Shown: positions 2,306-37,821 of the stretch, piece by piece
Layout of the letters: every line of letters starts with the position of its first letter
How positions within the stretch are numbered: the first letter of the stretch is position 1
Translations under genes and position numbers: made by a program
Notes under the pieces: model-generated
The model's database searches: none
What the model was told of the DNA's origin: nothing
Seen by the model: only the letters and a program-made list of their open reading frames with translations
Source: Lytechinus pictus
Lineage: Eukaryota
DNA: 64,000 nucleotides
Direction of reading: 5' to 3'
NCBI RefSeq assembly: GCF_037042905.1
Contig: NC_087251.1
Coordinates: 36,644,001 to 36,708,000 of the forward strand

Positions 2306-4880
2306 GAGATCAGAGCAGCACCTTTAGCCAGGTGGTTCCTGTGGTCCTGGACCTGAACAGTCATCTGTGGAAGTGGCTGGCCAAGGGGGGGGGGGGAATG
2401 CAGGCACATTGTTGTGGCAATGAGGGACTTCCTTCAGCGAAGATTCTAAGGAATTTTGAAGTACGGCATGGTCCCAACTGGACCAGGGACCCACAATGAG
2501 CCCTTTGTGATCGCAGAACAGTGACTCATTGCCACAGAATGAATTTTTATCGTGGTGAATATTTTGAAGACTCTTTAAGTAGCGAAACTTTATTTTAAAA
2601 AATAAAAAATTCTCTCCTTGTGATTTTTTTCCAAAACCAAAAACTTGGAGATTGTCGTTTTGGAAACTTTAAAAGGTGAATAGAAAATGATACGTCGTAG
2701 TGCCGCTCTTCTGCTTGTAAACAGTTAGTGTGTACAGCGTACACTACAAGCCACTGAACTCTTGCCTTGCTCGCATGTGCGAAGGTGCGGCAAAAGCTCA
2801 TAGCTCATTGGTTTATCAAGCATAACGTAACTGTAAACTTCGTGCACACTGCCCCTGCCGGCCCAGCCCAAGACAGATTTCATTCATAACAAGTGGAACG
2901 CCTCTGGCAGTCTCGCCTGCATTACGCAATTTAATATAGCAGCAGTGCTAACTTTGAAAACTACTATAAAATAATCATTCACAAAAACATCATTCATATA
3001 ATGACATAATACCACGTTCATTGACCATAAATGACATTTGAACGGAGACTTAAGACTGTCAACTACACCCATGTCCACATTTCATTCACTCTATCCATAA
3101 ACTTTCAAAGTTATGATGGCACTTCAACAATTACCCCAACATGGCCTAAGTTTATTGACCTAAACTGACCTTTGATTTGGTTTTGTGACCTGAATCTCAC
3201 AGGGGATGTTCAGTGATGCTTGATTACTCTTATATCCCAAGTTTTATGAACTAGATCCATAAACTTTCACAGTTAGGATGGTAATTCAACAAATACCCCC
3301 AACACGGCCAAAGTTCATTGACCTTTAATGACCTTTTACCATAGTCATGTGACCTGAAACTCGTACAGGATGTTCAGTGATACTTGATTACTCTTATGTC
3401 CAAGTTTTATGAACTAGATCCATAAACTTTCAGAGTTAGGATGGTAATTTAACAAATACCCCCAACATGGCCAAAGTTCATTGACCTTAAATGACCATTG
3501 ACCATGGTCATGTGAACTGAAACTCGCACAGGATATTCAGTGGTACTTGATTAACCTAATGTCCAAGTTTCATAAACTAGATCCATAAATTTTCAAAGTT
3601 ATGATAGTAATTCAACAAATACCCCCAACTTGACCAAAGCTCATTGACCCTAAATGACCTTTGACCTTGGTCACGTGACCTGAAACTCGAGAAGGATGTT
3701 CACTAATACTTGATTAACCTTATGCCCAAGTTTCATGAACTAGGTCCATATACTTTCTAAGTTATGATGTCATTTCAAAAACTTAACCTTCGGTTAAGAT
3801 TTTGAAAATAATTTTCCCAACATGGTCTAAGTTCATTGACCCTAAATGACCTTTGACCTTGGTCATGTGACCTGAAACTCAGGCAGGATGTTCAGTAATA
3901 CTTGATTAACCTTATGTCTAAGTTTCATGAACTAGGTCCAAATACTTTCTAAGTTATCATGTCATTTCAAAAACTTAACCTTAGGTTAAGATTTGATGTT
4001 GACGCCGCCGCCGCCGTCGCCGTCGGAAAAGCGGCGCCTATAGTCTCGCTCTGCTATGCAGGCGAGACAAAAATGGACATGTAAGTGGGGCTGTGGCTTC
4101 TCGCGCAAATACAGAACTCCAAGGGTGGGTATAAAAGTGGAATTTTAGTGATGAAAACTTGTGCAGCATCTGAGAACTTAGAATTAATGTGAGGCTGTGA
4201 GCATGGTAATTTAATGTTGTTCAATTAAATATTTATTCGCTTGTTTACAACTCCCACGCAAGTTTTATGCAGATGATACAGTGTACACGGTCATAGAATT
4301 CCGTACACGTGCACTGACTTGACCCTGCGTGTACACGTATACCCAAAACAGGCCTAAAATTGTTACATTTCTTTTCTATCGTATCTGATTTATTGCAGGT
4401 AACTAGATTGATCAAGAATTACAAGATATATGTATTTTAAGATTTGTTTCCATTTTTATTTTCATTACAGAGCTTGTCATCAGTATGGCAGAGAGAAGGC
4501 TAAGTAATGCAGAAGATGTAGAGAGGGGGAAGGAATGGCAACCAACAGCACCATCAAGGATGAGGAGATGCCAGCAAAATTCCTGCGTTTAACAGCTAAA
4601 TACCGAATGATTCCCAAGCGAGTAAAGAGTGGGGGCAAAGACAAAGCAAGGGCTCAGCTGAACAACTACCTTGCAACAGAAACTAACGGCCAAGATGCCA
4701 TCACCTTCTGGGCCCCTGGCAATTCTGCCCGTGTTAAATACCCAGCCCTTCACCTACTTGTCATGAAAATCCTCGGTGTTCCTGCAAGTAGCACACCTAT
4801 TGAGAGGGAGTTCAACACAGGTGGAATTATACATGTAGGGCTTGTTTAAACCCTGTGATGGTTGAAAAGTGCAACAAGCA
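2306..4880 (+). pseudogene. Degenerate, intron-split hAT (Ac/ZBED-like) transposase, C-terminal part
   Basis: After acceptor ttcag (2301-2305) the sequence reads GDQSSTFSQVVPVVLDLNSHL. After a frameshift in a G-run it reads HIVVAMRDFLQRRF*GIL. After acceptor ttacag (4470) it reads LNNYL...AITFW...KYPALHLLVMKILGVPASSTPIEREFNTGG, which matches the hAT C-terminal dimerisation motif. Stops and frameshifts are present, and a HINE lies between the two pieces. Confidence 0.8.
2888..4072 (-). mobile_element. Non-autonomous Helentron-type element (HINE; DINE-1/Tsp-like) with internal ~163-bp tandem repeats
   Basis: On the + strand: AACAAGTGGAA.., subTIR GTCTCGCCTGCAT, ~5 repeat units, (GCC)n microsatellite, then GTCTCGCTCTGCTATGCAGGCGAGAC hairpin and AAAAA. 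Ends lie in A/T runs with no TSD. Confidence 0.85.
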
Positions 4881-9799: not shown

Positions 9800-10768
9800 A
9801 ACAAGTGGAATGCCTCTGGCCGTCTCACCTGCATCACGCAATTCAATATAGCAGCAGTGCTGATTTTGAAAACTACTATAACTCGCACAAGATGTTCAGT
9901 GATACTTGGTTACTCTTATTTCCACGTTTTATGAACTAGACCAATACACTTATAGAGATATGATGGCAATTCAACAAATACCCCCAACATGGCCAAAGTT
10001 CTTTGACCTTACATGACCTTTGACCTTGATCATGTGACCTGAAACTTGCACAGGATGTTCAGTGATACTTGATTACTATTATGTCCAAGTTTTATGAACT
10101 AGACCAACACACTTTCAAATTTATGGCTGTAATTCAACAAATACCCCAATTTGGCCAAAGTTCATTGACCCTAAATGACCTTTGACCTTGATCATGTGAC
10201 CTGAAACTTGCACAGGATGTTCAGTAATACTTGATTACTATTATGTCCAAGTTTCATGAATCAGATCCATAAACTTTCAAAGTTATGATGGTAATTCAAC
10301 AGATACCCCCAATTCGGCCAAAGTTCATTGACCCTAAATGACCTTTGACCTTGGTCATGTGACGTGAAACTCATGCAGGATGTTCAGTGATACTTGATTA
10401 ACCTTATGTATAAGTTTCATGAACTAGGTCCATATATTTTCTAAGTTATGATGACATTTCAAAAACTTAACCTTAGGTTAAGATTTTGATGTTGATTCCC
10501 CCAACATGGTCTAAGTTCATTGACCCTAAATGACCTTTGACCTTGGTCATGTGACATGAAACTCAGGCAGGATGTTCAGTAATACTTGATTAACCTTATG
10601 GCCAAGTTTCATGAACTAGGTCCATATACTTTCTAAGTTATGCTGTCATTTCAAAAACTTAACCTCAGGTTAAGATTTGGTGTTGACGCCGCCGCCGCCG
10701 TCGCCGCCGCCGCCGCCGTCGGAAAAGCGGCGCCTATAGTCTCACTCTGCTATGCAGGTGAGACAAAA
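9800..10768 (-). mobile_element. HINE (Helentron-type) copy with 5 internal repeat units
   Basis: subTIR GTCTCACCTGCAT / ATGCAGGTGAGAC, ~162-164-bp units plus one 192-bp unit, (GCC)n tract, A-run ends. Confidence 0.9.
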
Positions 10769-11350: not shown

Positions 11351-12307
11351 CTGCACCACCTTTCCTGTCAACTTTTTAGCACCTCTCTTCACAAGAAAAA
11401 TGTTTTGGTTACTTGAAAATTGCAGGCCTATCGTATTTAAAAAAAAAGAAAAAAGGAAGCCCGATGGTGGCGCTAATAAATTTCACAGCCTACATTCAGC
11501 TCCTCGGTAATTTTATAACTGTGTCTAAATTCTTTGAATGCGCAATTCTTATGATTACTTGATAAAATATGGGCACTGATAAAATAAATGAAATATCTTC
11601 AAAAACATAATTTAAGATCATTATTGGTGATAACACTTTTCTGCAAATAATGATGGCTAATCTAAAAAATCTTAGAAGATCTACCTTGACCAAAACCAGC
11701 AGTGCAGTACAAGCTTTATTTTTAAAGGACAAGTTCACCCCAACCAAAAGTGGATTTGAATAAAAAGAGAAAAATCCAAAAAGCGCAACACTAAAATTTC
11801 ATCAAAATCGGATGGAAAATTAGAAAGTTATGACATTTTAAAGTTTAATTAATTTCACAAAATAGTTATATTCACATCCTGGTTAGTATGCAAATGACGG
11901 AACTGATGACATCACACACTCACTACCGTATTTCTTTTGTATTTTATAATATGAAATATTCTAATTTTCTCCTCATTGTCCTGTGAAACAAAGTTTTATT
12001 TAGTACTGAACATGTTGAATTACCATTGTTTAACATTTTATGGTTCAGTCAAGTTGGTCTTTATTGTCAAATCTGTAAAAACCTAAATATTGTATGATTC
12101 AATCAATAAAAAACAAAAGAAATAGTGAGTGAGGGACATCATCTATTATCCAGTCTCATTTGCATGTGACAAAATTTGGGGAAAATAAGCAAAACTTTAA
12201 AATGTCATAACTTTCTTATTTTACATCCGATTTTTATGAAATTTTCAGCATTTATGCTTGTCTGATTTTTCTTTCTTGATTCGAATCAACATTTTTCTGC
12301 TCTGAGG

Positions 12308-19776: not shown

Positions 19777-21731
19777 GGATAACCGCTGGCACGGCACTTG
19801 CAATAAGTTTTTATTCTTATTTAAAAATTTGAAATTTATCTACATTTTACATTAAGTAAGCTTTGGATATGAAACTTACCGAACGATATGAAGCCAATTT
19901 CAATTCCTCTCTGTCTTTCTGGTACTTTATATCGATGATTTTTCTTGATGTCGAAGCAGGCATGGCCCCGATTAGCTGGTTCTCTCTATACGCACAGAGA
20001 GGGCGCGCGATATTATTTAATAAACTTGCTTGTTTACGTCAGATCAGCTGTACTGCTGGCTGCGTTCTAGGCGCTCCGCATTTTTTTCGCTGTTCAGCGT
20101 TATTTTATGATGTAGCGCCAGCAGCGATTATACGTGACATGCAACCTGTTGATTTTTGGTACAGTTTCCTATTATGCGCCGGCGACTTGAATCTAGACTG
20201 TTCGATAGGAAAAATTCGCATTTCGATTGTTGTTTGCGTAATTTCCACCGCAGTATTAAGTATCGGACGGAGTAACTGGCTGAGATTTGGAGGTAAGCGT
20301 TTAAAATCCATTTTTATAGATAAGTTCGTGCTGATTTTTAAAATTAGATTACATTATAAGATTAAGATTACTAAATTTAGTATATTGTGAAGATTTAGGC
20401 GTGTTTCATATTCTCAGTTTCGTGTGATGAATGAAAACGTCAAAATTCATTATGAAATGACATGCGTTGTGCGAGGTTAGTACCGTATACTAACCTCGCA
20501 TGTTGTGTGAGTGATGGATGTGTCGTGTGTGTCGCGTTATTATGAATGATATTCCTTCGCACGCGAGATGATATGAGCCCATGGCCATGCCCATGGTAGA
20601 CAGCTGGCAGCCGTCTGTTTCGAGGAGTTTTTTAACATTTTTTTTTAAAATAAATTTCTCCTCATACACAGACGGCTCGCTAGCGTGCAGCCACCATTAG
20701 GGGACTTGCAATGCAAAATCCCCCCGTCGGGGCTCTTCAATTTTTGTCTTTAATGAGTAAAAATTTTGAAAATTCACGCGACCAAAATGCAAATTAATAT
20801 TCCCTCTTGGCATCAATTGCCAAAAAAACGGAGAAAAATCAAGTTAAAAGGAACAAAAACAGTGACTTACCTCAGCTGTCGCGCAAATTCACTTCCCTGT
20901 TTTATCCGATCTTAAGTACATAAACATATGGCCATTGAGTCCCCTGTACAGATCGCGCTAGAACTTCGGTCTCTGTATTTGGTGAGTGAAGCCAACGGAG
21001 TTCAGCTGAACAACCAACATAACAGAGACCGAAGCTTTTGGTCTATGCCCATGGGTGCATATCACCGCCACACGGCCACCGGTAGTATCGAGTCCCTAGC
21101 GATAGCCCGAGCTCCGCCCGACTTCGGCGGCGGAGGAGACCCCTCGGGCCCGAATGAGACTCATGAGACAGTCATGCTGACTAGCAAGCAAAGTCAATTA
21201 AAGAAAAACAAAACTCTAAGTAGCATCAAAATTCTCATCACTCTTTATCATATACAGTCAAAGCATACGCAATTCAAAGGTACAGGATTCATCTTGTTTA
21301 ACGAATCGGGTACACTCACCTGTAAATTTAAAAAAAGAAAACATCACATTTGCATCACCTTTTCGTACCGGTAGCGCGTACCGGTAGTACCGACTCCCGA
21401 TATCCCAGTTCTTGTATGGTATCTTATAGATCCAGGAGCTACTGCACTGGATTCGGTCTGGATTGGCTATAATATCCGGCGGGATATACGGTAACTTGGC
21501 TTCGTTCTGAACTTGCTTGATTTCCTGACATATCATTTAATACATTACATTATTTTCTTTCAAACCAACATATTATTTTTTTATGGAATGATTCAGATAA
21601 CAAAATTTGAAGCCAAATCTGCCGGGGTGAGTTTGCATCGCCGCCCGGCATCGCCGCAATTATATTGCTGCTGATGCATTGTGCCGATCGAATGATGGGA
21701 TGAGGCGGAGGATGCTCATAAAGATGATGAT

Positions 21732-22576: not shown

Positions 22577-25500
22577 ATGAATGTTCGAAGTATTTTTGGT
22601 AAACTTGATGAAATTAGCTTTCTATTAAAAAAACTAGATCTTGATATCTTATGTATATCCGAAACGTGGTTGAGCAATGCAATAAAAGATGGTATGATTA
22701 ATATCGATAATTACAGTTTATTAAGATTAGATAGAAGTAGTAAACGTGGAGGTGGAGTATGTATGTATATTCGTAGTACTTTATCTTTCTGTCGACGGCA
22801 TGATTTAGAGCATAATTCCCTAGAAGCATTATGGATAGAATTAAAATTAAAACACGAAAGTTTGATTATAAGCTGCTTATATAGACCTCCAAATTCTCAG
22901 TCCGAATTCTTTGATCATTTATTCAATGTCTTAGAATTGACATCAATTGACAATAAGAAATTGTGTATACTTGGTGATATTAATATTGATTATTTTGATA
23001 CCAAATGTAGTGGGAAAAAAAATATTGATGACATGGAGAACCTTTTTCTTCTAACTCAACTGGTAAATAAACCCACAAGGGTAACTCTGACAACATCCAA
23101 ATGTATTGACCATATTTTTTCAACTAATCCTAATGATCATTTAATAACAAATGTTGCACCGATTTCTCTCAGCGACCACTACTTGACTTATACATGTCTT
23201 AATTTTAGAAATCAGTCTACTAGCCATAAAACAGTGCGTTTCAGGAATTATAAAAAATTTGACCAAAAGTTATTTCTTGATGATTTATCCAAAAGTTCAA
23301 TATGCAATGATAATTTTTCGTGCAACGATGACATAAATACCGTATGGAAGAGTTGGAAAAATATTTTCCTTGATATATGTCATAAACATGCTCCCCTTAA
23401 AGGAGAATGAAACTCTTGGAGCAAGTTAGCTTTTGTGAAAGCAGAAAAATCAAAGAATAAGATCAACAAAAGTTTGAGTAAAATAGGACTAGCAATAGAA
23501 GAGTTATGAGCATTTGAATGTCGAGATCACTAATGCTATGGTGATCCTCCCATTGGCAATGCGACCAAGATCTATGATGTCACAGATGAACAACTCTCCC
23601 CTTTTGGACACTGAAAATATACCCCAAAATATCTCGTTTTGCTCATTCTAACCATATGACAAACGATTCATCAATGATATAATGTTGTGAAACCTCTGTA
23701 CTTGTCCTCTCATAAAGAGAACACCTCACCTTGTGATAGACTCTATAAAAGTGAGAATATAAGTGAAATAAGTACTAAAGTAATGAGGGAGTTGTACGTG
23801 TGTGACATCACAGATCTTGGTCGCATTGCCAATGGGAGGATCTACATGGCATTAGTGATCTCAATATTAAAATGCTCATAACTTTCTTATTATTCATTCA
23901 ATCTTCCTCAAACTTTCAACAATATGTTTCTTTGATTTTTCTCTTTGATGTGGATTCAGCTGGTTTCAAGGGTTTCATTCTCCTTTAAAGTTATCAGAGT
24001 TAAAGAACGTTACTCTCCGTGGATAACTGGTGAAATTATTGATCTTATGTACCGGCGTGATTTCTTGAAAAGAAAATATTGTAAATCAAAAGCGGTAGAT
24101 AATCTTCATCATGTTAAAGAATATCGTATTGTAAGAAATCAAATTACTAAATTAATAAGAAAATCTAAACGTCAATACTTTTCCGAGATTTCCACTAAAT
24201 ATAAACATGATCCAAAGAAATTATGGAATGAACTTACTTTGATGACTGGAAATACAAAAAACAAAAATGATGTTCCAGCTGAATTAGACTGTAACACAAT
24301 GAATGATTATTTTATTAATGTAGGCAAAAAATTTAATTACAAAGAAAAGGATATTAATTGGAACCAACCACAGTGTATATATGAATTTGATTTTGAGCAT
24401 GCTAAACCTGATGAAGTGTTAAAACTGCTCTTGAGTCTGTCATCCACAAGTAACCTAGATGTTATGAATTTTGATTCTAAACTTCTACGTTTAGCTGCAC
24501 CTCTTATTTATAATTCACTAAGTCAAATTTTCAATTTAAGTTTATTGTCAGGTATAATCCCAGACGACTGGAAAAAGTCAAGAACAACACCTATATATAA
24601 GGGTAAAGGATCAAAATCAGATAAGTCAAACTATAGACCAATTTCAGTCGTTTGTCATATTTCCAAATTAATTGAAAAAACTGTTCAAAAACAACTTCTC
24701 GCTTATTTACAAAAGTTTGATCTTATCAATATTGATCAGTTTGCTTTCATTCCTAACCACTCAACTGTCACCTCCTTACATAGAGTTATTGACGATTGGT
24801 ATGGGGCATTCAATAAACGTGAAGTTGTCGGGGCATGCTTCCTTGACATTTCTAAATGCTTCGATTCAATCGATCACAAGCTATTACTATTCAAATTAGA
24901 AAAATACGGCATTACTCGTAATTCATTGAAATGGTTTGAATGTTATTTAAGTAACAGAAAGCAAATGGTCTGTTGCCATGGTGAAATGTCATCATATAAA
25001 GATGTAGATATCGGAATTCCGCAAGGGAGTGGGCTTGGCCCGGCTCTTTTTCTCTTAATAATTAATGATATTTCTACTTGTCTCAACAGTGGTGAATGTA
25101 ATATTTTTGCTGATGACGTGGTAATTTATGATTATGGTTCCGATGTCAATGAAGTTACTTTAAAAATGCAAAAGAATATCGACAATGTTAAAAAATGGTA
25201 TGATAAAAACCACTTAAGTATAAACGTCAGTAAGACAAAGGTAATGCTGTTGAGAAATAGGTCTTATTCATGCGATAAGATTAATATTTTTATTGATAAT
25301 AATTTGGTGGAACAGGTGAAATCTATTAGATACCTCGGTGTTGAAATTGATGAAAATTTGAATTGGAGTTCGCACGTTAATCATATATCCAAAACATTAG
25401 CCTACAAGATATTTTCACTCGGTAAACTAAGACAATTTTTGAATAAATCCCACCTTAACACTCTTTATATGACAAATGTTTTGCCAACTTTAGATTATGC

Positions 25501-25939
25501 CATTTCTGTTTGGGGAAATTATATTGGTAAAAGGGAACTAGATCACTTAACACGATTACAAAAAAGAGCAGCACGCTACGTTGCAGGTAATTTTGATTAT
25601 GTTAACAGCCGTGGTGAAGATCTCATGAAGGAACTCAAATGGCCTACTATTGAGCAAAGACGTGATTATTTTTTAGCCAATATTATGTTTAAGTGTATAC
25701 ATGGAATGGCTCCTATCAGATTATGTAATAATATTGAGTTGGTAGTTGATAGGCATGACATAAGAACTAGAAATTGTGATACACTCAATGTTATACCACC
25801 CAAACCGAATTTGGAATGTTTTAAGAGGTCTTTTTTATTTTCAGGATAAAAAATCTGGAATAATTTACCACATTTTCTTCAAAATCTACCTTCAATTAAC
25901 TCCTTTAAGAGAATGTATAAAAAGCTCTTCCAATGTTAA
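22577..25939 (+). pseudogene. LINE ORF2 (APE endonuclease + reverse transcriptase), disrupted by a MITE (23401-23988) and one nonsense codon (25847-25849)
   Basis: APE motifs: NVRS, CISETWL, RGGGV, LYRPP, LGDIN, IDHIF, SDH. RT motifs: NYRPIS, FLDISKCFDSIDH, GIPQGSGLGP, FADD, YLGV. Removing the MITE and one TTAA restores HAPLKVIRVKER in frame. Reading through the TAA at 25847 gives KIWNNLP...SFKRMYKKLFQC* ending at 25939. Confidence 0.95.
23401..23984. mobile_element. Kolobok-like MITE inserted in LINE ORF2 (unedited)
   Basis: TTAA TSD (23397-23400, 23985-23988). TIR AGGAGAATGAAAC / GTTTCATTCTCCT. Inverted arms of ~190 bp. Confidence 0.93.
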
Positions 25940-26368
25940 AGGGGAGTGAAATCTTTGGAATAGGTAGGCTGGTGTCGAGGCGGAGGGGTCGAGGAGGCAG
26001 ATCGGCGAGGGTTTGGGAGGGGTCGGACGGGCGGTGGGAGGGTTGTGGGCGTTTGAATGTTGCGATCACTGATGCTGTGGGGATCCTCCCATTGGCGGTG
26101 CGACGGGGGTGTGTGGTGTCGCATGTTAACAGTTTTCCCTTTAATGGACTGTGAGATGCCGGCCCAGGGGAGAGTTGTTCGCAGGTGGCATCGCACATCT
26201 TTGTTGCGTCGCCGGTGTGGGGGTCTCCGTAGCGTTGGTGATCGCATTGTTCGGGTGCTCGTGGCCTTCTCATTGTTTGTCCGATTTTTCTCGGGCTTTC
26301 GTTGGTCTGTTTCTTTGATTTTTCTGATTTCACACGGGCTATTTTTGTTCTAAGGGTTTCATTCTCCT
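25940..26368. mobile_element. Related Kolobok-like MITE in the LINE 3' UTR, A-to-G hypermutated on the + strand
   Basis: TTAA / CTAA flanks. Ends AGGGGAGTGAAA / TTTCATTCTCCT. Homologous to 23401-23984 (shared GATCCTCCCATTGGC). The two arms differ almost only by G-for-A changes on the + strand. Confidence 0.9.
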
Positions 26369-26859
26369 CTAATACTTATCATATGAAGCATCATTGTGAA
26401 AGGTTGGGTGGTGTTATCAGATAATCTTGCCGTGATTACTTAACTAGTTCGAACTGAATTCCATTTTTTAATGTCATAATATAATTATTGCAGTATTTTA
26501 TTATCATATTTTAGTAGCTATGTAATCAAATTTTTTCAATGTCTTAACATAATTATTTACAGTATTTTTTTATCATATTTTAGTAGCTAAGTTTAAATAT
26601 TTATATGTATTTTGCATCATGATATTATTGTAACTTTATATGTTTTTTATCCCTGTTAAATCAGGACATTGATGTAAAACAGCAATTTAGCTGATCTTTT
26701 TATCCTGAATAAATATTTTCTAATAAATAAATAAATAAATAAGAAAGAAGGAAAAAAGAGGGAAGGGGAGATAAGAAGGGGAAAGAAGAAAAGAGAAAGA
26801 AAAAAAAAAGGGGGAAGAGAAAGAGGGGAAAAAACTAATAAATGGGTGGAAGCACCCAT

Positions 26860-28690
26860 TTGATGTTGACCGGCGTGCCGATTTGATGTTCGAATGATGA
26901 GGAGGGGCCAATTGATGTTCGAACTAGGGGGCGCTGAATTAATGTTCAAACTATATAGAAGGGCGCCATATTGATGTTCAAACTATATAGGGGCGCCAAA
27001 TTGATGGTTGAACTGGAGGGGGGGGGGGGGTGCGCAGAAATGTTGTTCAAACTAGGGGGCGCCGAATTGGTGTTCAAACTAGGGGTGCCAAATTGATGTT
27101 CAAACAAGGGGGGGTGAATTGATGTGATCGAACTAAGGGGGATGCCGAATTGATGTTCGAATTAGGGGGCGCCGAATTAATGTTTGAAGTTAATAGGGCG
27201 GGTGCCACATGAATGTTCAAACTATAGGGGGGCGCCGAATTGATGTTCGAACTAGAGGTGGGGGGCGCTGAATTGATGTTCGAACTATAGGGGCCGCCAA
27301 ACTGATGTTCAAACTAGAGGTGCCAAATTGATGTTCGAACAAGGAGGGCGAAGTGATGTTCGAATTAGGGGGCGCCGAATCGCGAACTATGGGGTGCCAA
27401 ATTGATGTTCAAACTGGGGGGGGGGGCGAATTTATGTTAGATCTAGAAAGCGCCAAATTGATGTTCGAACTAGGGGTTGGGGGCGCCGAATTGATGTTCT
27501 AACAAGGGGGTGCCAAATTGATGTTCAAACTAGGGGCGCCAAATTGATGTTTGAACTAGGAGGGGGCACGAATCAAAGTTCAAACTATGGGGGGCCGAAT
27601 TGATGTTCAAGCTATATAAGGGCGCCAAATTGATGTTCGAACAAGGGGGGTGCGGAAATGATGTTCGAACTAGGGGGGGGGGGCCCTAAATTGATGTTCA
27701 AACTAAAGGGACTCCAAAATAATGTTTGAATTAGGGAGGGGGGCGCTGAATTGATGTTCGAACTACAGGGGCCGCCAAACTGATGTTCAAATTAGGGGCG
27801 CCGAATTGATGTTCGAACAAGGAGGGCGAAGTGATGTTCGAATTAGGGGGCGCCGAATCGCGAACTATGGGGTGCCAAATTGATGTTCAAACTGGGGGGG
27901 GGGGGGCGAATTTATGTTAGATCTAGAAAGCGCCAAATTGATGTTCGAACTAGGGGTTGGGGGCGCCGAATTGATGTTCTAACAAGGGGGTGCCAAATTG
28001 ATGTTCAAATTAGGGGCGCCGAATCGATGTTTGAATTAGGGGGCGCCACATTGATGTTCAAACTAGGGGGGCGCCGAATTGATGTTCGAAGTAGGGGGTG
28101 CCGAATTGATGTTCAAATTAGGGGCGCCGAATCGATGTTTGAATTAGGGGGCGCCACATTGATGTTCAAACTAGGGGGCGCCAAATTGATGTTCAAATTA
28201 GGGGCGCCGAATCGATGTTTGAATTAGGGGGCGCCACATTGATGTTCTAACTAGGGGGGCGCCGAATTGATGTTCGAAATAGGGGGTGCCGAATTAATAT
28301 TTGAACTATAGGGGGGCGCCATATTGATGTTTGAACTAGGGGGGCGCAAAATTTATGTTCGAACTATAGGGGGCGCCGAATCGATGTTCTTCGAACAAGG
28401 GGGCTGCCAAATTGAGTCAAACTAGGGGCGAAAAATTGATGTTTAAATTAGGAGGGGGCGCCGAATTGATATTCGAACTAGGGGGGGGGGGGGCGGCCAG
28501 GCGCCGAATTGATGTTCAAACTAGGGGAGCGCCAATATGATGTTTGACCAGAGGCGACAAATTAATGTTTTTAAGAGGGGGGAGGGCAAAGTCATTTTCA
28601 CATGGGGGCTCCAAATTCATGTTCAACTGAAGGCGCCAAATTGACCTTAAACTAAGGGGGTGCCATGCAAATTCATGTTCGACCGGGGGC
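26860..28690. repeat. ~28-33-bp minisatellite array (consensus AATTGATGTTCGAACTAGGGGGCGCCG)
   Basis: Dozens of head-to-tail units with variable G-run length. An internal block duplication matches ~27260-27530 to ~27740-28010. Confidence 0.95.
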
Positions 28691-35442: not shown

Positions 35443-36208
35443 AACAAGTGGAATGCCTCTGGCCGTCTCACCTGCATCACGTGATTCAATATAGCAGCAG
35501 TGCTGATTTTGAAAACTACTATAACTCGCACAAGATGTTCAGTGATACTTGGTTACTCTTATTTCCACGTTTTATGAACTAAACCCATACACTTATAGAG
35601 ATATGATGGCAATTCAACAAATACCCCAAACGTGGCCAAAGTTCTTTGACCTTGATCATGTGACCTGAAACTTGCACAGGATGTTCAGTAATACTTGATT
35701 ACTATTATGTCCAAGTTTCATGAATCAGATCCATAAACTTTCAAAGTTATGATGGTAATTCAACAGATACCCCCAATTCGGCCAAAGTTCATTGACCCTA
35801 AATGACCTTTGACCTTGGTCATGTGACGTGAAACTCATGCAGTATGTTCCGTGATACTTGATTAACCTTATGTATAAGTTTCATGAACTAGGTCTATATA
35901 TTTTCTAAGTTATGATGACATTTCAAAAACTTAACCTTAGGTTAAGATTTTGATGTTGATTCCCCCAACATGGTCTAAGTTCATTGACCCTAAATGACCT
36001 TTGACCTTGATCCTGTGACCTGAAACTTGCACAGGATGTTCAGTAATACTTGATTAACCTTTTGGCCAAGTTTCATGAACTAGGTCCATATACTTTGTAA
36101 GTTATGCTGTCATTTCAAAAACTTAACCTCAGGTTAAGATTTGGTGTTGCCGCCGCCGTCGGAAAAGCGGCGCCTATAGTCTCACTCTGCAATGCAGGTG
36201 AGACAAAA
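35443..36208 (-). mobile_element. HINE copy with 4 internal repeat units
   Basis: Same termini and subTIRs as 9800-10768 and near-identical to it, with one unit fewer. Confidence 0.9.
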
Positions 36209-36909: not shown

Positions 36910-37821
36910 AACAAGTGGAATGCCTCCGGCCGTCTCACCTGCATCACGCGATTCAATATAGCAGCAGTGCTGATTTTGAAAACTACTATAACTCGCACAA
37001 GATGTTTAGTGATACTTGGTTACTCTTATTTCCACGTTTTATGAACTAAACCCATACACTTATAGAGATATGATGGTATTTCAACAAATACCCCCAACGT
37101 GGCCAAAGTTCATTGACCTTACATGACCTTTGACCTTGATCATGTGACCTGAAACTCGCACAGGATGTTCAGTGATACTTTATTAGTCTTGTGTCCAAGT
37201 TTCAAGAGTCAGATCCATCAACTTTCAAAGTTATGATGGTAATTCAACAGATACCCCCATTATGGCCAAAGTTCATTGACCTTTGACCTTGGTCATGTGA
37301 CCTAAAATGCGCACAGGATGTTCAGTGATACTTGATTACTCTTATGTCCAAGTTTTATGAACTAGACCAACACACTTTCAAAGTTATGGCAGTAATTCAA
37401 CAAATACCCCAATTTGACCAAAGTTCATTGACCCTAAATGACCTTTGACCTTAATCATGTGACCTGAAACTTGCACAGGATGTTCAGTAATACTTGATTA
37501 CTATTATGTCCAAGTTTCATGAATCAGATCCATAAACTTTTAAAGTTATGATGGTAATTCAACAGATACCCCCAATTCGGCCAAAGTTCATTGACCCTAA
37601 ATGACCTTTGACCTTGGTCATGTGACATGAAACTCAGGCAGGATGTTTAATAATACTTGATTAACATTATGGCCAAGTTTCATGAACTAGGTCCATATAC
37701 TTTCTAAGTTATGCTGTCATTTCAAAAACTTAACCTCAGGTTAAGATTTGGTGTTGACGCCGCCGCCGCCGTCGGAAAAGCGGCGCCTATAGTCTCACTC
37801 TGCTATGCAGGTGAGACAAAA
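36910..37821 (-). mobile_element. HINE copy with 5 internal repeat units
   Basis: Same termini and subTIRs. It lacks the 192-bp variant unit. Confidence 0.9.

Follow-up and report, generated by a model that had tools for sequence, protein, structure and literature searches.

The window analysed here, a stretch of 64,000 nucleotides of the Lytechinus pictus genome (NC_087251.1, positions 36,644,001 to 36,708,000 of the forward strand), contains a LINE whose 3'UTR carries a captured hairpin MITE that is heavily changed from A to G on one strand only. This pattern is best explained by ADAR-type hyperediting of the LINE RNA, with the edits then fixed in DNA by retrotransposition and extended in later rounds, a reading to which we assign a probability of roughly 0.88. 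We infer both the enzyme, ADAR, and the level of the change, RNA, from patterns in the genomic sequence. The initial annotation of the region had already proposed that the LINE transcript folded at the MITE, was hyperedited and was rewritten into DNA, and this proposal is supported by the direction of change relative to a consensus, by the avoidance of a 5' G, by the confinement of edited copies to LINEs and by the existence of empty insertion sites. The same type of change was found in two further LINE families, LINE-B and LINE-C. The parts of the LINE in the window, termed LINE-A, and of the MITE that it carries are as follows (window positions):

22577 to 23410, + strand: endonuclease part of the LINE-A ORF2, an open frame of 277 aa (Pfam Exo_endo_phos, E = 8.7e-13)
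23397 to 23988, + strand: unedited, diverged relative of the MITE, TTAA-flanked, which splits ORF2 and was used as an internal control (identity to the MITE consensus 78.5%)
23945 to 25849, + strand: reverse transcriptase part of the LINE-A ORF2, 634 aa, stop at 25847-25849 (Pfam RVT_1, E = 5.6e-32)
25850 to 26742, + strand: LINE-A 3'UTR, common to 17 other copies up to position 2303 of the window copy (L001), which is window position 26742
25936 to 25939, no strand: left TTAA target-site duplication of the MITE; empty-site LINE-A copies read ...CCAATGTTAATACATATC... with one TTAA
25940 to 26368, + strand: captured MITE, with ~160 nt of its centre missing, A>G hypermutated on the + strand relative to the consensus of 30 free copies
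25940 to 26150, + strand: left, G-rich arm of the hairpin as given by the RNA fold, A>G at 50/85 As and T>C at 0/52 Ts
26157 to 26368, + strand: right, T-rich arm of the hairpin as given by the RNA fold, A>G at 27/43 As and T>C at 3/78 Ts
26369 to 26372, no strand: right target-site duplication of the MITE, now CTAA through one T>C according to the consensus alignment (the LINE-A copy L013 still has TTAA)
26721 to 26742, + strand: (TAAA)n tail of LINE-A, where every copy ends and unrelated flanks begin

LINE-A has the hallmarks of a LINE: its ORF2 combines AP-endonuclease and reverse transcriptase domains (as also found for LINE-B), and its copies are truncated at varied 5' points (219, 442, 1312, 1352, 1407, 1537, 1718, 1746, 1786 and 1796 in L001 numbering) and share a common 3' end with a simple-repeat tail. 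The flanks of eight LINE-A copies revealed no convincing target-site duplication, the longest shared words being 6-8 nt, and Pfam searches of three candidate ORF1s (window 19863-20390, window 20928-21374 and L063:2078-2953) returned nothing above the cut-off. Copies that are 99-100% identical attest to recent activity of the lineage.

The interval singled out at the start, 25940-26368, is precisely the body of the MITE, with TTAA on its left and CTAA on its right. G+C is ~0.55-0.65 within the MITE (55% for the region) and ~0.3 outside it, the remaining LINE having 32%. The same hairpin, whole or in part, occurs at 18 LINE-A places on nine contigs (C1, C3, C6, C7, C8, C9, C15 and C20 among them) at 93-100% identity, and the window hairpin is therefore not an assembly artefact; in all LINE-A copies the MITE is without ~160 nt of its centre. 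The presence of the sequence in genomic reads receives weak independent support from the MITE/UTR junctions found in assembled contigs (Logan) of other public runs. One such contig (X1) covers 26157-26545 with 7 differences, others (X2) cover the junctions at 25822-25984 (5 differences) and 26262-26432 (1 difference), and another (X4) contains a copy resembling LINE-B whose centre measures 165 nt, while the whole hairpin is spanned by no single contig among those matched. Among the public runs listed with this stretch, none is recorded as RNA. With a cut-off of E <= 0.1, Rfam matched no family in 25000-27000. In older LINE-A copies (L080, L081, L083, L086 and others), which are 91-96% identical in the ORF2 end, the site is empty, with a single TTAA and the MITE absent (...CTCTTCCAATGTTAATACATATCATATG...), which indicates that the MITE was captured by a DNA-level insertion into the LINE-A 3'UTR. 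Among LINE-A lineages, the one with the MITE is the youngest.

Outside LINEs the MITE is abundant. Searching the 812-Mb host assembly with an unedited relative gave >3000 first-look candidates, the best 40 full-length matches being 94-100% identical to the query (L028). As reference we used the consensus of 30 free copies (L031-L060) whose flanks are unrelated, with TTAA on the left of 30/30 and on the right of 28/30. The element is ~590 nt long with the termini AGGGGAATGAAACC...GGTTTCATTCTCCT, and its terminal inverted repeats, TTAA duplication, short length and lack of coding capacity identify the family as a high-copy, TTAA-targeting hairpin MITE. The label Kolobok-like given in the initial annotation is tentative, the TTAA duplication and the inverted termini being the features observed; a TTAA duplication is produced by both piggyBac and Kolobok. 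The consensus has a G+C content of 35% and 8 CpG.

The two arms of the window hairpin carry the first trace of the change. Aligned without gaps over 77 nt, 25981-26057 and the reverse complement of 26250-26326 differ by 38 mismatches, 28 of them G/A and 10 T/C with zero others, a recount that agrees exactly with the figures of the initial annotation; because the mismatches are solely of these two kinds, each is a G·T (G·U) pair on the + strand. The same diagonal (i+j=52307), followed over 253 positions, comprises 123 Watson-Crick pairs and 82 G·T pairs. The arms alone leave the direction of change ambiguous, because A>G in an AT-rich ancestor and C>T in a GC-rich ancestor both yield G·T. The proposed direction, A>G on the LINE sense (+) strand, was settled by the free-copy consensus, against which the window copy has A>G at 78/137 As (57%) and T>C at 5/140 Ts (Fisher p = 1e-24), alongside 4 C>T, 1 G>A and 5 transversions. 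A comparable number of T>C changes on the + strand, named beforehand as a sign against editing, is thus absent. From the consensus to the window copy, G+C shifts from 35% to 55% and CpG from 8 (observed/expected 0.45) to 29 (1.01), in keeping with the earlier idea that an AT-rich MITE had been turned into CpG-rich DNA.

This asymmetry is specific to the captured hairpin. Pooled against the consensus, the 30 free copies have balanced changes (A>G at 61/5755 As, 68 T>C, 103 C>T, 79 G>A and 256 transversions), and the same holds for the relative within ORF2 (23397-23988), which presumably inserted later as DNA (18 A>G, 19 T>C, 11 C>T, 22 G>A and 54 transversions). The flanks of the LINEs are likewise balanced in their substitutions, unlike the hairpin. 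Few of the edited sites have a G in at least 3 of the 30 free copies (2/78 for the window copy, 4/116 for the LINE-B copy L017 and 1/78 for the LINE-C copy L062), and the edits were therefore not pre-existing variants.

Clustered A>G changes on one strand were found in three copies, each from a different LINE family and each with few T>C (78 vs 5 in the window copy, 116 vs 5 in LINE-B and 78 vs 4 in LINE-C). LINE-B (L017 and L061) ends in an (AAACTG)n tail, and its ORF2, of 1055 aa, encodes an endonuclease and a reverse transcriptase and is ~32% identical to that of LINE-A. Its MITE is full-length, lies between TTAAs with the ORF2 ATG (L017:2903) ~810 nt downstream of it, and differs from the consensus by A>G at 116/192 As and T>C at 5/196 Ts (p = 1e-39), with 5 C>T and 2 G>A. 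Older LINE-B copies have an empty TTAA site (L070, L073, L074 and L075/76, 93-94% identical, and L072, 88%), and young copies, 99.5% identical, have this edited MITE as well, their 5' truncation points falling within it at 1800, 1836 and 2027; the truncation points of LINE-B overall are 1800, 1836, 2027, 2119 and 2345. Comparison of ~1977 nt of LINE-B flanks with MITE-less copies gives balanced counts of the four transitions (10-11 A>G, 14-15 G>A, 13-14 T>C and 16-17 C>T). LINE-C (L062) carries a MITE from a different MITE subfamily, placed between TTAAs and followed ~970 nt downstream by an endonuclease-type ORF; the start of the endonuclease is the part seen, and it shares 33% identity with LINE-B (E = 1.6e-17). 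In this copy, the one MITE-bearing copy of LINE-C, A>G changes affect 78/191 As and T>C changes 4/196 Ts (p = 2e-23), with 7 C>T and 4 G>A. The LINE-C flanks form a repeat family with MITE-less copies on C22, C2 and C21 (empty sites) and with 5'-truncated copies as well. The MITEs of the three families occupy different TTAA sites, those of LINE-B and LINE-C being in 5' regions.

The extent and the sequence context of the changes resemble the action of an ADAR. The share of aligned As that changed is 57% in the window copy, 60% in L017 and 41% in L062. In vitro, modification of long perfect duplexes can reach about half of their adenosines, a ceiling that the 57% matches. Grouped by their 5' neighbour in the consensus, edited As in the window copy amount to 36/50 after A, 20/34 after C, 11/19 after T and 11/33 after G. 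The predicted depletion of a 5' G at changed sites is present in all three copies, with 11/33 As after G against 67/103 other As edited in the window copy (p = 0.002), 13/41 against 103/148 in L017 (p = 2e-5) and 8/40 against 70/145 in L062 (p = 0.002). Expressed as edited fractions, these are 0.33, 0.32 and 0.20 after G compared with 0.46-0.74 after A, C or T. A 3' G at edited sites is in slight excess, which is not significant. The surviving As had been described as mostly following a G; such As do form the largest single class (26/60), but they are not the majority. An aversion to a 5' G is a reported property of ADAR (PMC8586724).

The substrate expected of such an enzyme is evident in the predicted folds. 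As RNA, the + strand of 25930-26380 forms one long hairpin of -284.2 kcal/mol (shuffles -154.0, sd 5.3; z = -24.4), whereas the - strand reaches only -97.6 kcal/mol (z = -2.9). In an unedited free copy the two strands fold equally (-334 and -319 kcal/mol). In edited copies the sense RNA still forms a G·U-rich helix (-282 to -349 kcal/mol), whereas the antisense RNA has lost its fold (-97 to -146 kcal/mol); calculated with DNA parameters, the hairpin weakens from -204 kcal/mol to a range of -68 to -101 kcal/mol. In the window copy, As that pair with U in the consensus fold were edited at 74/125 and unpaired ones at 4/11. In L017, predicted-unpaired As were edited almost as often as paired ones (19/34 vs 97/155), and the non-self-complementary, weakly paired centre of the MITE was edited too (31/58 As in L017 and 17/55 in L062), so a simple cis hairpin is not the full explanation. 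Editing of the centre may reflect local structure that extends further, or else pairing with antisense transcripts from other MITE copies. An ADAR is encoded in the genome, as a 554-aa open frame with dsrm in two stretches (E = 2.9e-28) followed by A_deamin (E = 1.7e-58); including this frame, the genome has four A_deamin loci.

That editing may have spanned several cycles, as first suggested, finds backing in the relationships among LINE-A copies. L013 is a basal LINE-A copy and keeps a 3'UTR segment of the empty-site copies that was lost in the window's group. It has 67 A>G and 8 non-A>G changes in common with the window copy, which has 10 private A>G (6 of them outside CpG context) compared with 2 private to L013, so that the edits of L013 are a near-subset of those of the window copy. 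More were added in the L012 lineage, where new A>G appear at 6/53 remaining hairpin As and at 1/631 flank As (p = 1e-6), and the duplicated pair L009/L010 shows a similar concentration (3/53 hairpin As vs 2/476 flank As, p = 0.008). Right-arm edits are already present in L015 and L022, which are old, diverged and 5'-truncated. Each of the seven youngest LINE-A copies (L001-L007) has 0-1 private A>G in the hairpin, and hyperediting is therefore not part of every retrotransposition. The bulk of the editing probably took place early, with smaller additions later. The commonest hairpin changes among LINE-A copies are C>T (24) and G>A (30, or 18 without L013), an excess as expected from CpG decay.

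LINE-A and LINE-B share edited sites with each other far more than either does with LINE-C. Between them 68 edited sites are shared and 9 and 17 are private (odds ratio 17.8), and a Mantel-Haenszel odds ratio of 12.9 is retained after stratifying by LINE-C state and 5' G. Given so high an overlap, the two are possibly not independent events, and the odds ratio of 12.9 favours shared descent. On the other hand, none of the other substitutions (15 and 13) is common to LINE-A and LINE-B and their minor MITE variants differ, which favours independence. Convergent editing of an identical substrate is one explanation for the overlap. It is conceivable, if rather doubtful, that the RNA edits spread beyond one LINE lineage through re-mobilisation of the edited MITE by its DNA transposase, from a LINE copy to another LINE. 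If this occurred, RNA-level edits would have entered the DNA-transposon pool.

The distribution of edited copies bears directly on whether RNA was involved at all. Among the matches listed, the 21 places at least 88% identical to the window hairpin all belong to LINE-A (18) or LINE-B (3). When the edited centre of the LINE-B copy was used as query, LINE-B (100%) and LINE-C (82%) alone exceeded the unedited background of 76-80% in the best 40 of 1414 matches. Free-standing G-rich copies, whose existence had been proposed as evidence against editing, were not seen among the best 40 candidates per search; within that scope every edited copy sits in a LINE lineage and in sense orientation. A parental LINE copy with an unedited MITE at the same site was not found among the matches listed for LINE-A, LINE-B or LINE-C. 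Identical edit sets on different chromosomes show that the edits were inherited through transposition rather than acquired in place.

It could be argued that the hairpin or cruciform mutated in a strand-asymmetric manner as DNA, through adenine deamination of the non-template strand in transcription or through an unidentified DNA adenine deaminase, with no RNA intermediate. The limitation of the changes to the palindrome and the edited state of the sole MITE-bearing LINE-C copy agree with this. We nevertheless regard it as very improbable, since the same palindrome is balanced in 30 free copies, the MITE relative within the same LINE copy is balanced as well, all edited copies among the matches listed are LINE-borne in sense orientation, and the edit sets repeated across chromosomes were inherited via transposition. 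Just as improbable in our view is misincorporation by the LINE reverse transcriptase, which would have to place C opposite template A in a very stable hairpin. Such an error would account for changes that are found solely in retrotransposed copies and solely in their structured part; however, the pattern recurs in three LINE families, with ORF2 proteins ~32% identical, the avoidance of a 5' G fits ADAR, and young copies went through reverse transcription with 0-1 new A>G. Furthermore, reverse transcriptases are not known to err in a pattern in which ~40-60% of As are changed on one strand with the Ts nearly intact.

A gradual gain of G with no hyperediting event, whether by GC-biased gene conversion or by selection for a G·U-rich RNA structure, appears even less credible. 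The preserved sense RNA hairpin and the youth of the MITE-bearing LINE-A lineage are compatible with it, but biased conversion would lift T>C equally (5 vs 78 were counted), at least 67 edits preceded the split of L013 and L001 when other substitutions amounted to just ~3%, and the LINE flanks show no bias. A GC-rich ancestor in which C>T changes arose on the + strand, through CpG decay or through deamination of an APOBEC-like or RIP-like type, is equally compatible with the arms taken alone but is refuted for practical purposes by a consensus of 35% G+C with A at the 78 G positions of the window copy and just 4 C>T.

Under the preferred reading, ADAR-type editing of LINE RNA, a ~590-nt TTAA-targeting hairpin MITE would have entered the 3'UTR of a LINE-A source copy by insertion at the DNA level, and each LINE-A transcript would thereafter have borne a long, nearly perfect intramolecular dsRNA. 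An ADAR-type enzyme would have deaminated more than half of the duplex adenosines to inosine, and the LINE's own reverse transcriptase, reading inosine as G in target-primed reverse transcription, would have left sense-strand A>G in the new copy. The edited copy would then have turned into a source element, with later rounds adding few edits in a lineage that was probably active until very recently. LINE-B and LINE-C may have followed the same course, each at a TTAA site of its own in the 5' region.

Related phenomena are known from retroviruses, with ADAR-linked A-to-G hypermutation described in proviral DNA of RAV-1 (Felder 1994), of avian leukosis virus (Hajjar & Linial 1995) and of HTLV-2/STLV-3 in culture (PMC8586724). 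As described in these accounts, double-stranded-type RNA is A-to-I edited and reverse transcribed to give clustered sense-strand A>G in DNA, as would be the case here. The retroviral cases, however, concern exogenous viruses in infected cells, whereas the present one concerns germline non-LTR LINEs with dsRNA derived from a captured DNA-transposon hairpin, and here edited copies are the sources of whole subfamilies in three LINE families. APOBEC G-to-A "DNA editing" footprints have been described in germline retrotransposons (Knisbacher & Levanon 2016, PMC4866542), and what is reported there is similar in that a host deaminase leaves strand-specific, clustered, one-way transitions in inherited copies, detected by comparing a copy with its subfamily consensus. 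In that account APOBEC acts on cDNA, with minus-strand C>U seen as G>A, in contrast to the A>G confined to a dsRNA-forming segment and avoiding a 5' G that is seen here. ADAR editing of Alu/SINE inverted repeats also involves a transposon-derived inverted repeat within a longer transcript but stays in RNA, whereas the edits in L. pictus are in the DNA of retrotransposon subfamilies. Restriction of human LINE-1 by ADAR1 is another instance in which ADAR meets LINE RNA; the report in question describes >2.5 kb of L1 RNA without editing and concludes that the mechanism is editing-independent (Orecchini 2017, PMC5224506), unlike the present LINE RNA, which has a long perfect hairpin and would have been heavily edited. 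A role of ADAR in the evolution of retrotransposon subfamilies such as Alu is called "logical to assume" in one review, which at that point treats it as undetermined (PMC4982230). No report of germline LINE families with an ADAR-edited captured transposon hairpin was found in the full-text literature, coverage of which is incomplete, with most subscription journals outside it, and this is not proof of novelty.

RNA editing is usually held to leave no genomic trace, and here a reverse-transcribing element would have written the edits into heritable DNA. Three LINE families with clean internal controls would thus provide a direct example of ADAR shaping retrotransposon subfamilies, and of a fast route to new sequence in which an AT-rich transposon becomes CpG-rich DNA in few steps. 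The edited copies would also constitute a fossil record of ADAR site choice on a long natural dsRNA, against which present-day editing can be set. On a practical level, such copies resemble a repeat family of their own, which can lead the annotation and dating of repeats astray. Lastly, editing and retrotransposition may together act as a ratchet that converts perfect dsRNA, potentially immunogenic or RNAi-triggering, into G·U-rich hairpins and gives rise to CpG-rich islands, and if this is true hairpin-bearing LINE lineages could stay active.

The hairpin transposon lying in the LINE-A 3' UTR (the window copy, rich in A>G changes) has two relatives nearby.

23397-23988: diverged, TTAA-flanked relative of the hairpin MITE, separating the endonuclease part of LINE-A ORF2 from its reverse transcriptase part
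11722-12298: more distant relative, ~58-72% identical to the MITE consensus

The first of these splits ORF2 of the window LINE-A copy and has a balanced substitution spectrum, that is, no excess of A>G over T>C, and it therefore probably inserted after this LINE-A copy had integrated. The spectrum of the more distant relative is also balanced. Elsewhere, a free copy of the MITE (L026) carries a nested insertion at ~1340-1590, edged by long G and C homopolymers. This insertion has inverted GGGGCCGCGGAAC/GTTCCGCGGCCCC ends and is another small palindromic element.

Two open frames cross the hairpin, both of which are most likely by-products of its G-rich, A-poor composition and not genes.

25905-26333, minus strand: open frame of 142 aa
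25936-26247, minus strand: open frame of 103 aa

Within the hairpin, position 26129 (1690 of L001, the locus holding the window's own LINE-A) is A in the window's group of copies and G in the LINE-A copies L012, L009/L010 and L013. This site has either been edited repeatedly or reverted from G to A in the young group. L009 (contig C8, 37.43 Mb) and L010 (C8, 29.33 Mb) share a common downstream flank as well as three identical private A>G changes, and are a single LINE-A insertion duplicated through segmental duplication or inversion. A tandem set of three LINE-A 3' parts lacking the MITE, spaced at ~4 kb and in one orientation, was also observed at G000:C12:17089525-17097440.

Several further sequence features accompany these elements, three of them in or just beyond the LINE-A 3' end.

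26463-26589: tandem repeat within the LINE-A 3' UTR, 1.9 copies of a 69-nt unit
26743-26830: purine-only stretch opening with AAGAAAGAAGGAAAAAAGAGGGAAGGGG, directly 3' of the (TAAA)n tail and ahead of the satellite
26877-28485: 27-nt satellite, unit GGGGGCGCCGAATTGATGTTCGAACTA, ~52 copies, beginning shortly past the LINE-A tail
2888-4010, 9886-10694, 35529-36158 and 36996-37765, with 7078-7679 of L061 (a locus of the second LINE family, LINE-B): ~160-200-nt repeat arrays

A sequence lying downstream of the LINE-B locus, on the same contig, shares 78-86% identity with the ~160-200-nt arrays. The 27-nt satellite also breaks up two other LINE-A copies (L082:~90-260 and L087:~175-900), one interruption falling within the MITE and the other within the 3' UTR. 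Its presence in these copies, together with its position after the window LINE-A tail, suggests that the satellite, or its carrier, is associated with LINE-A 3' ends.
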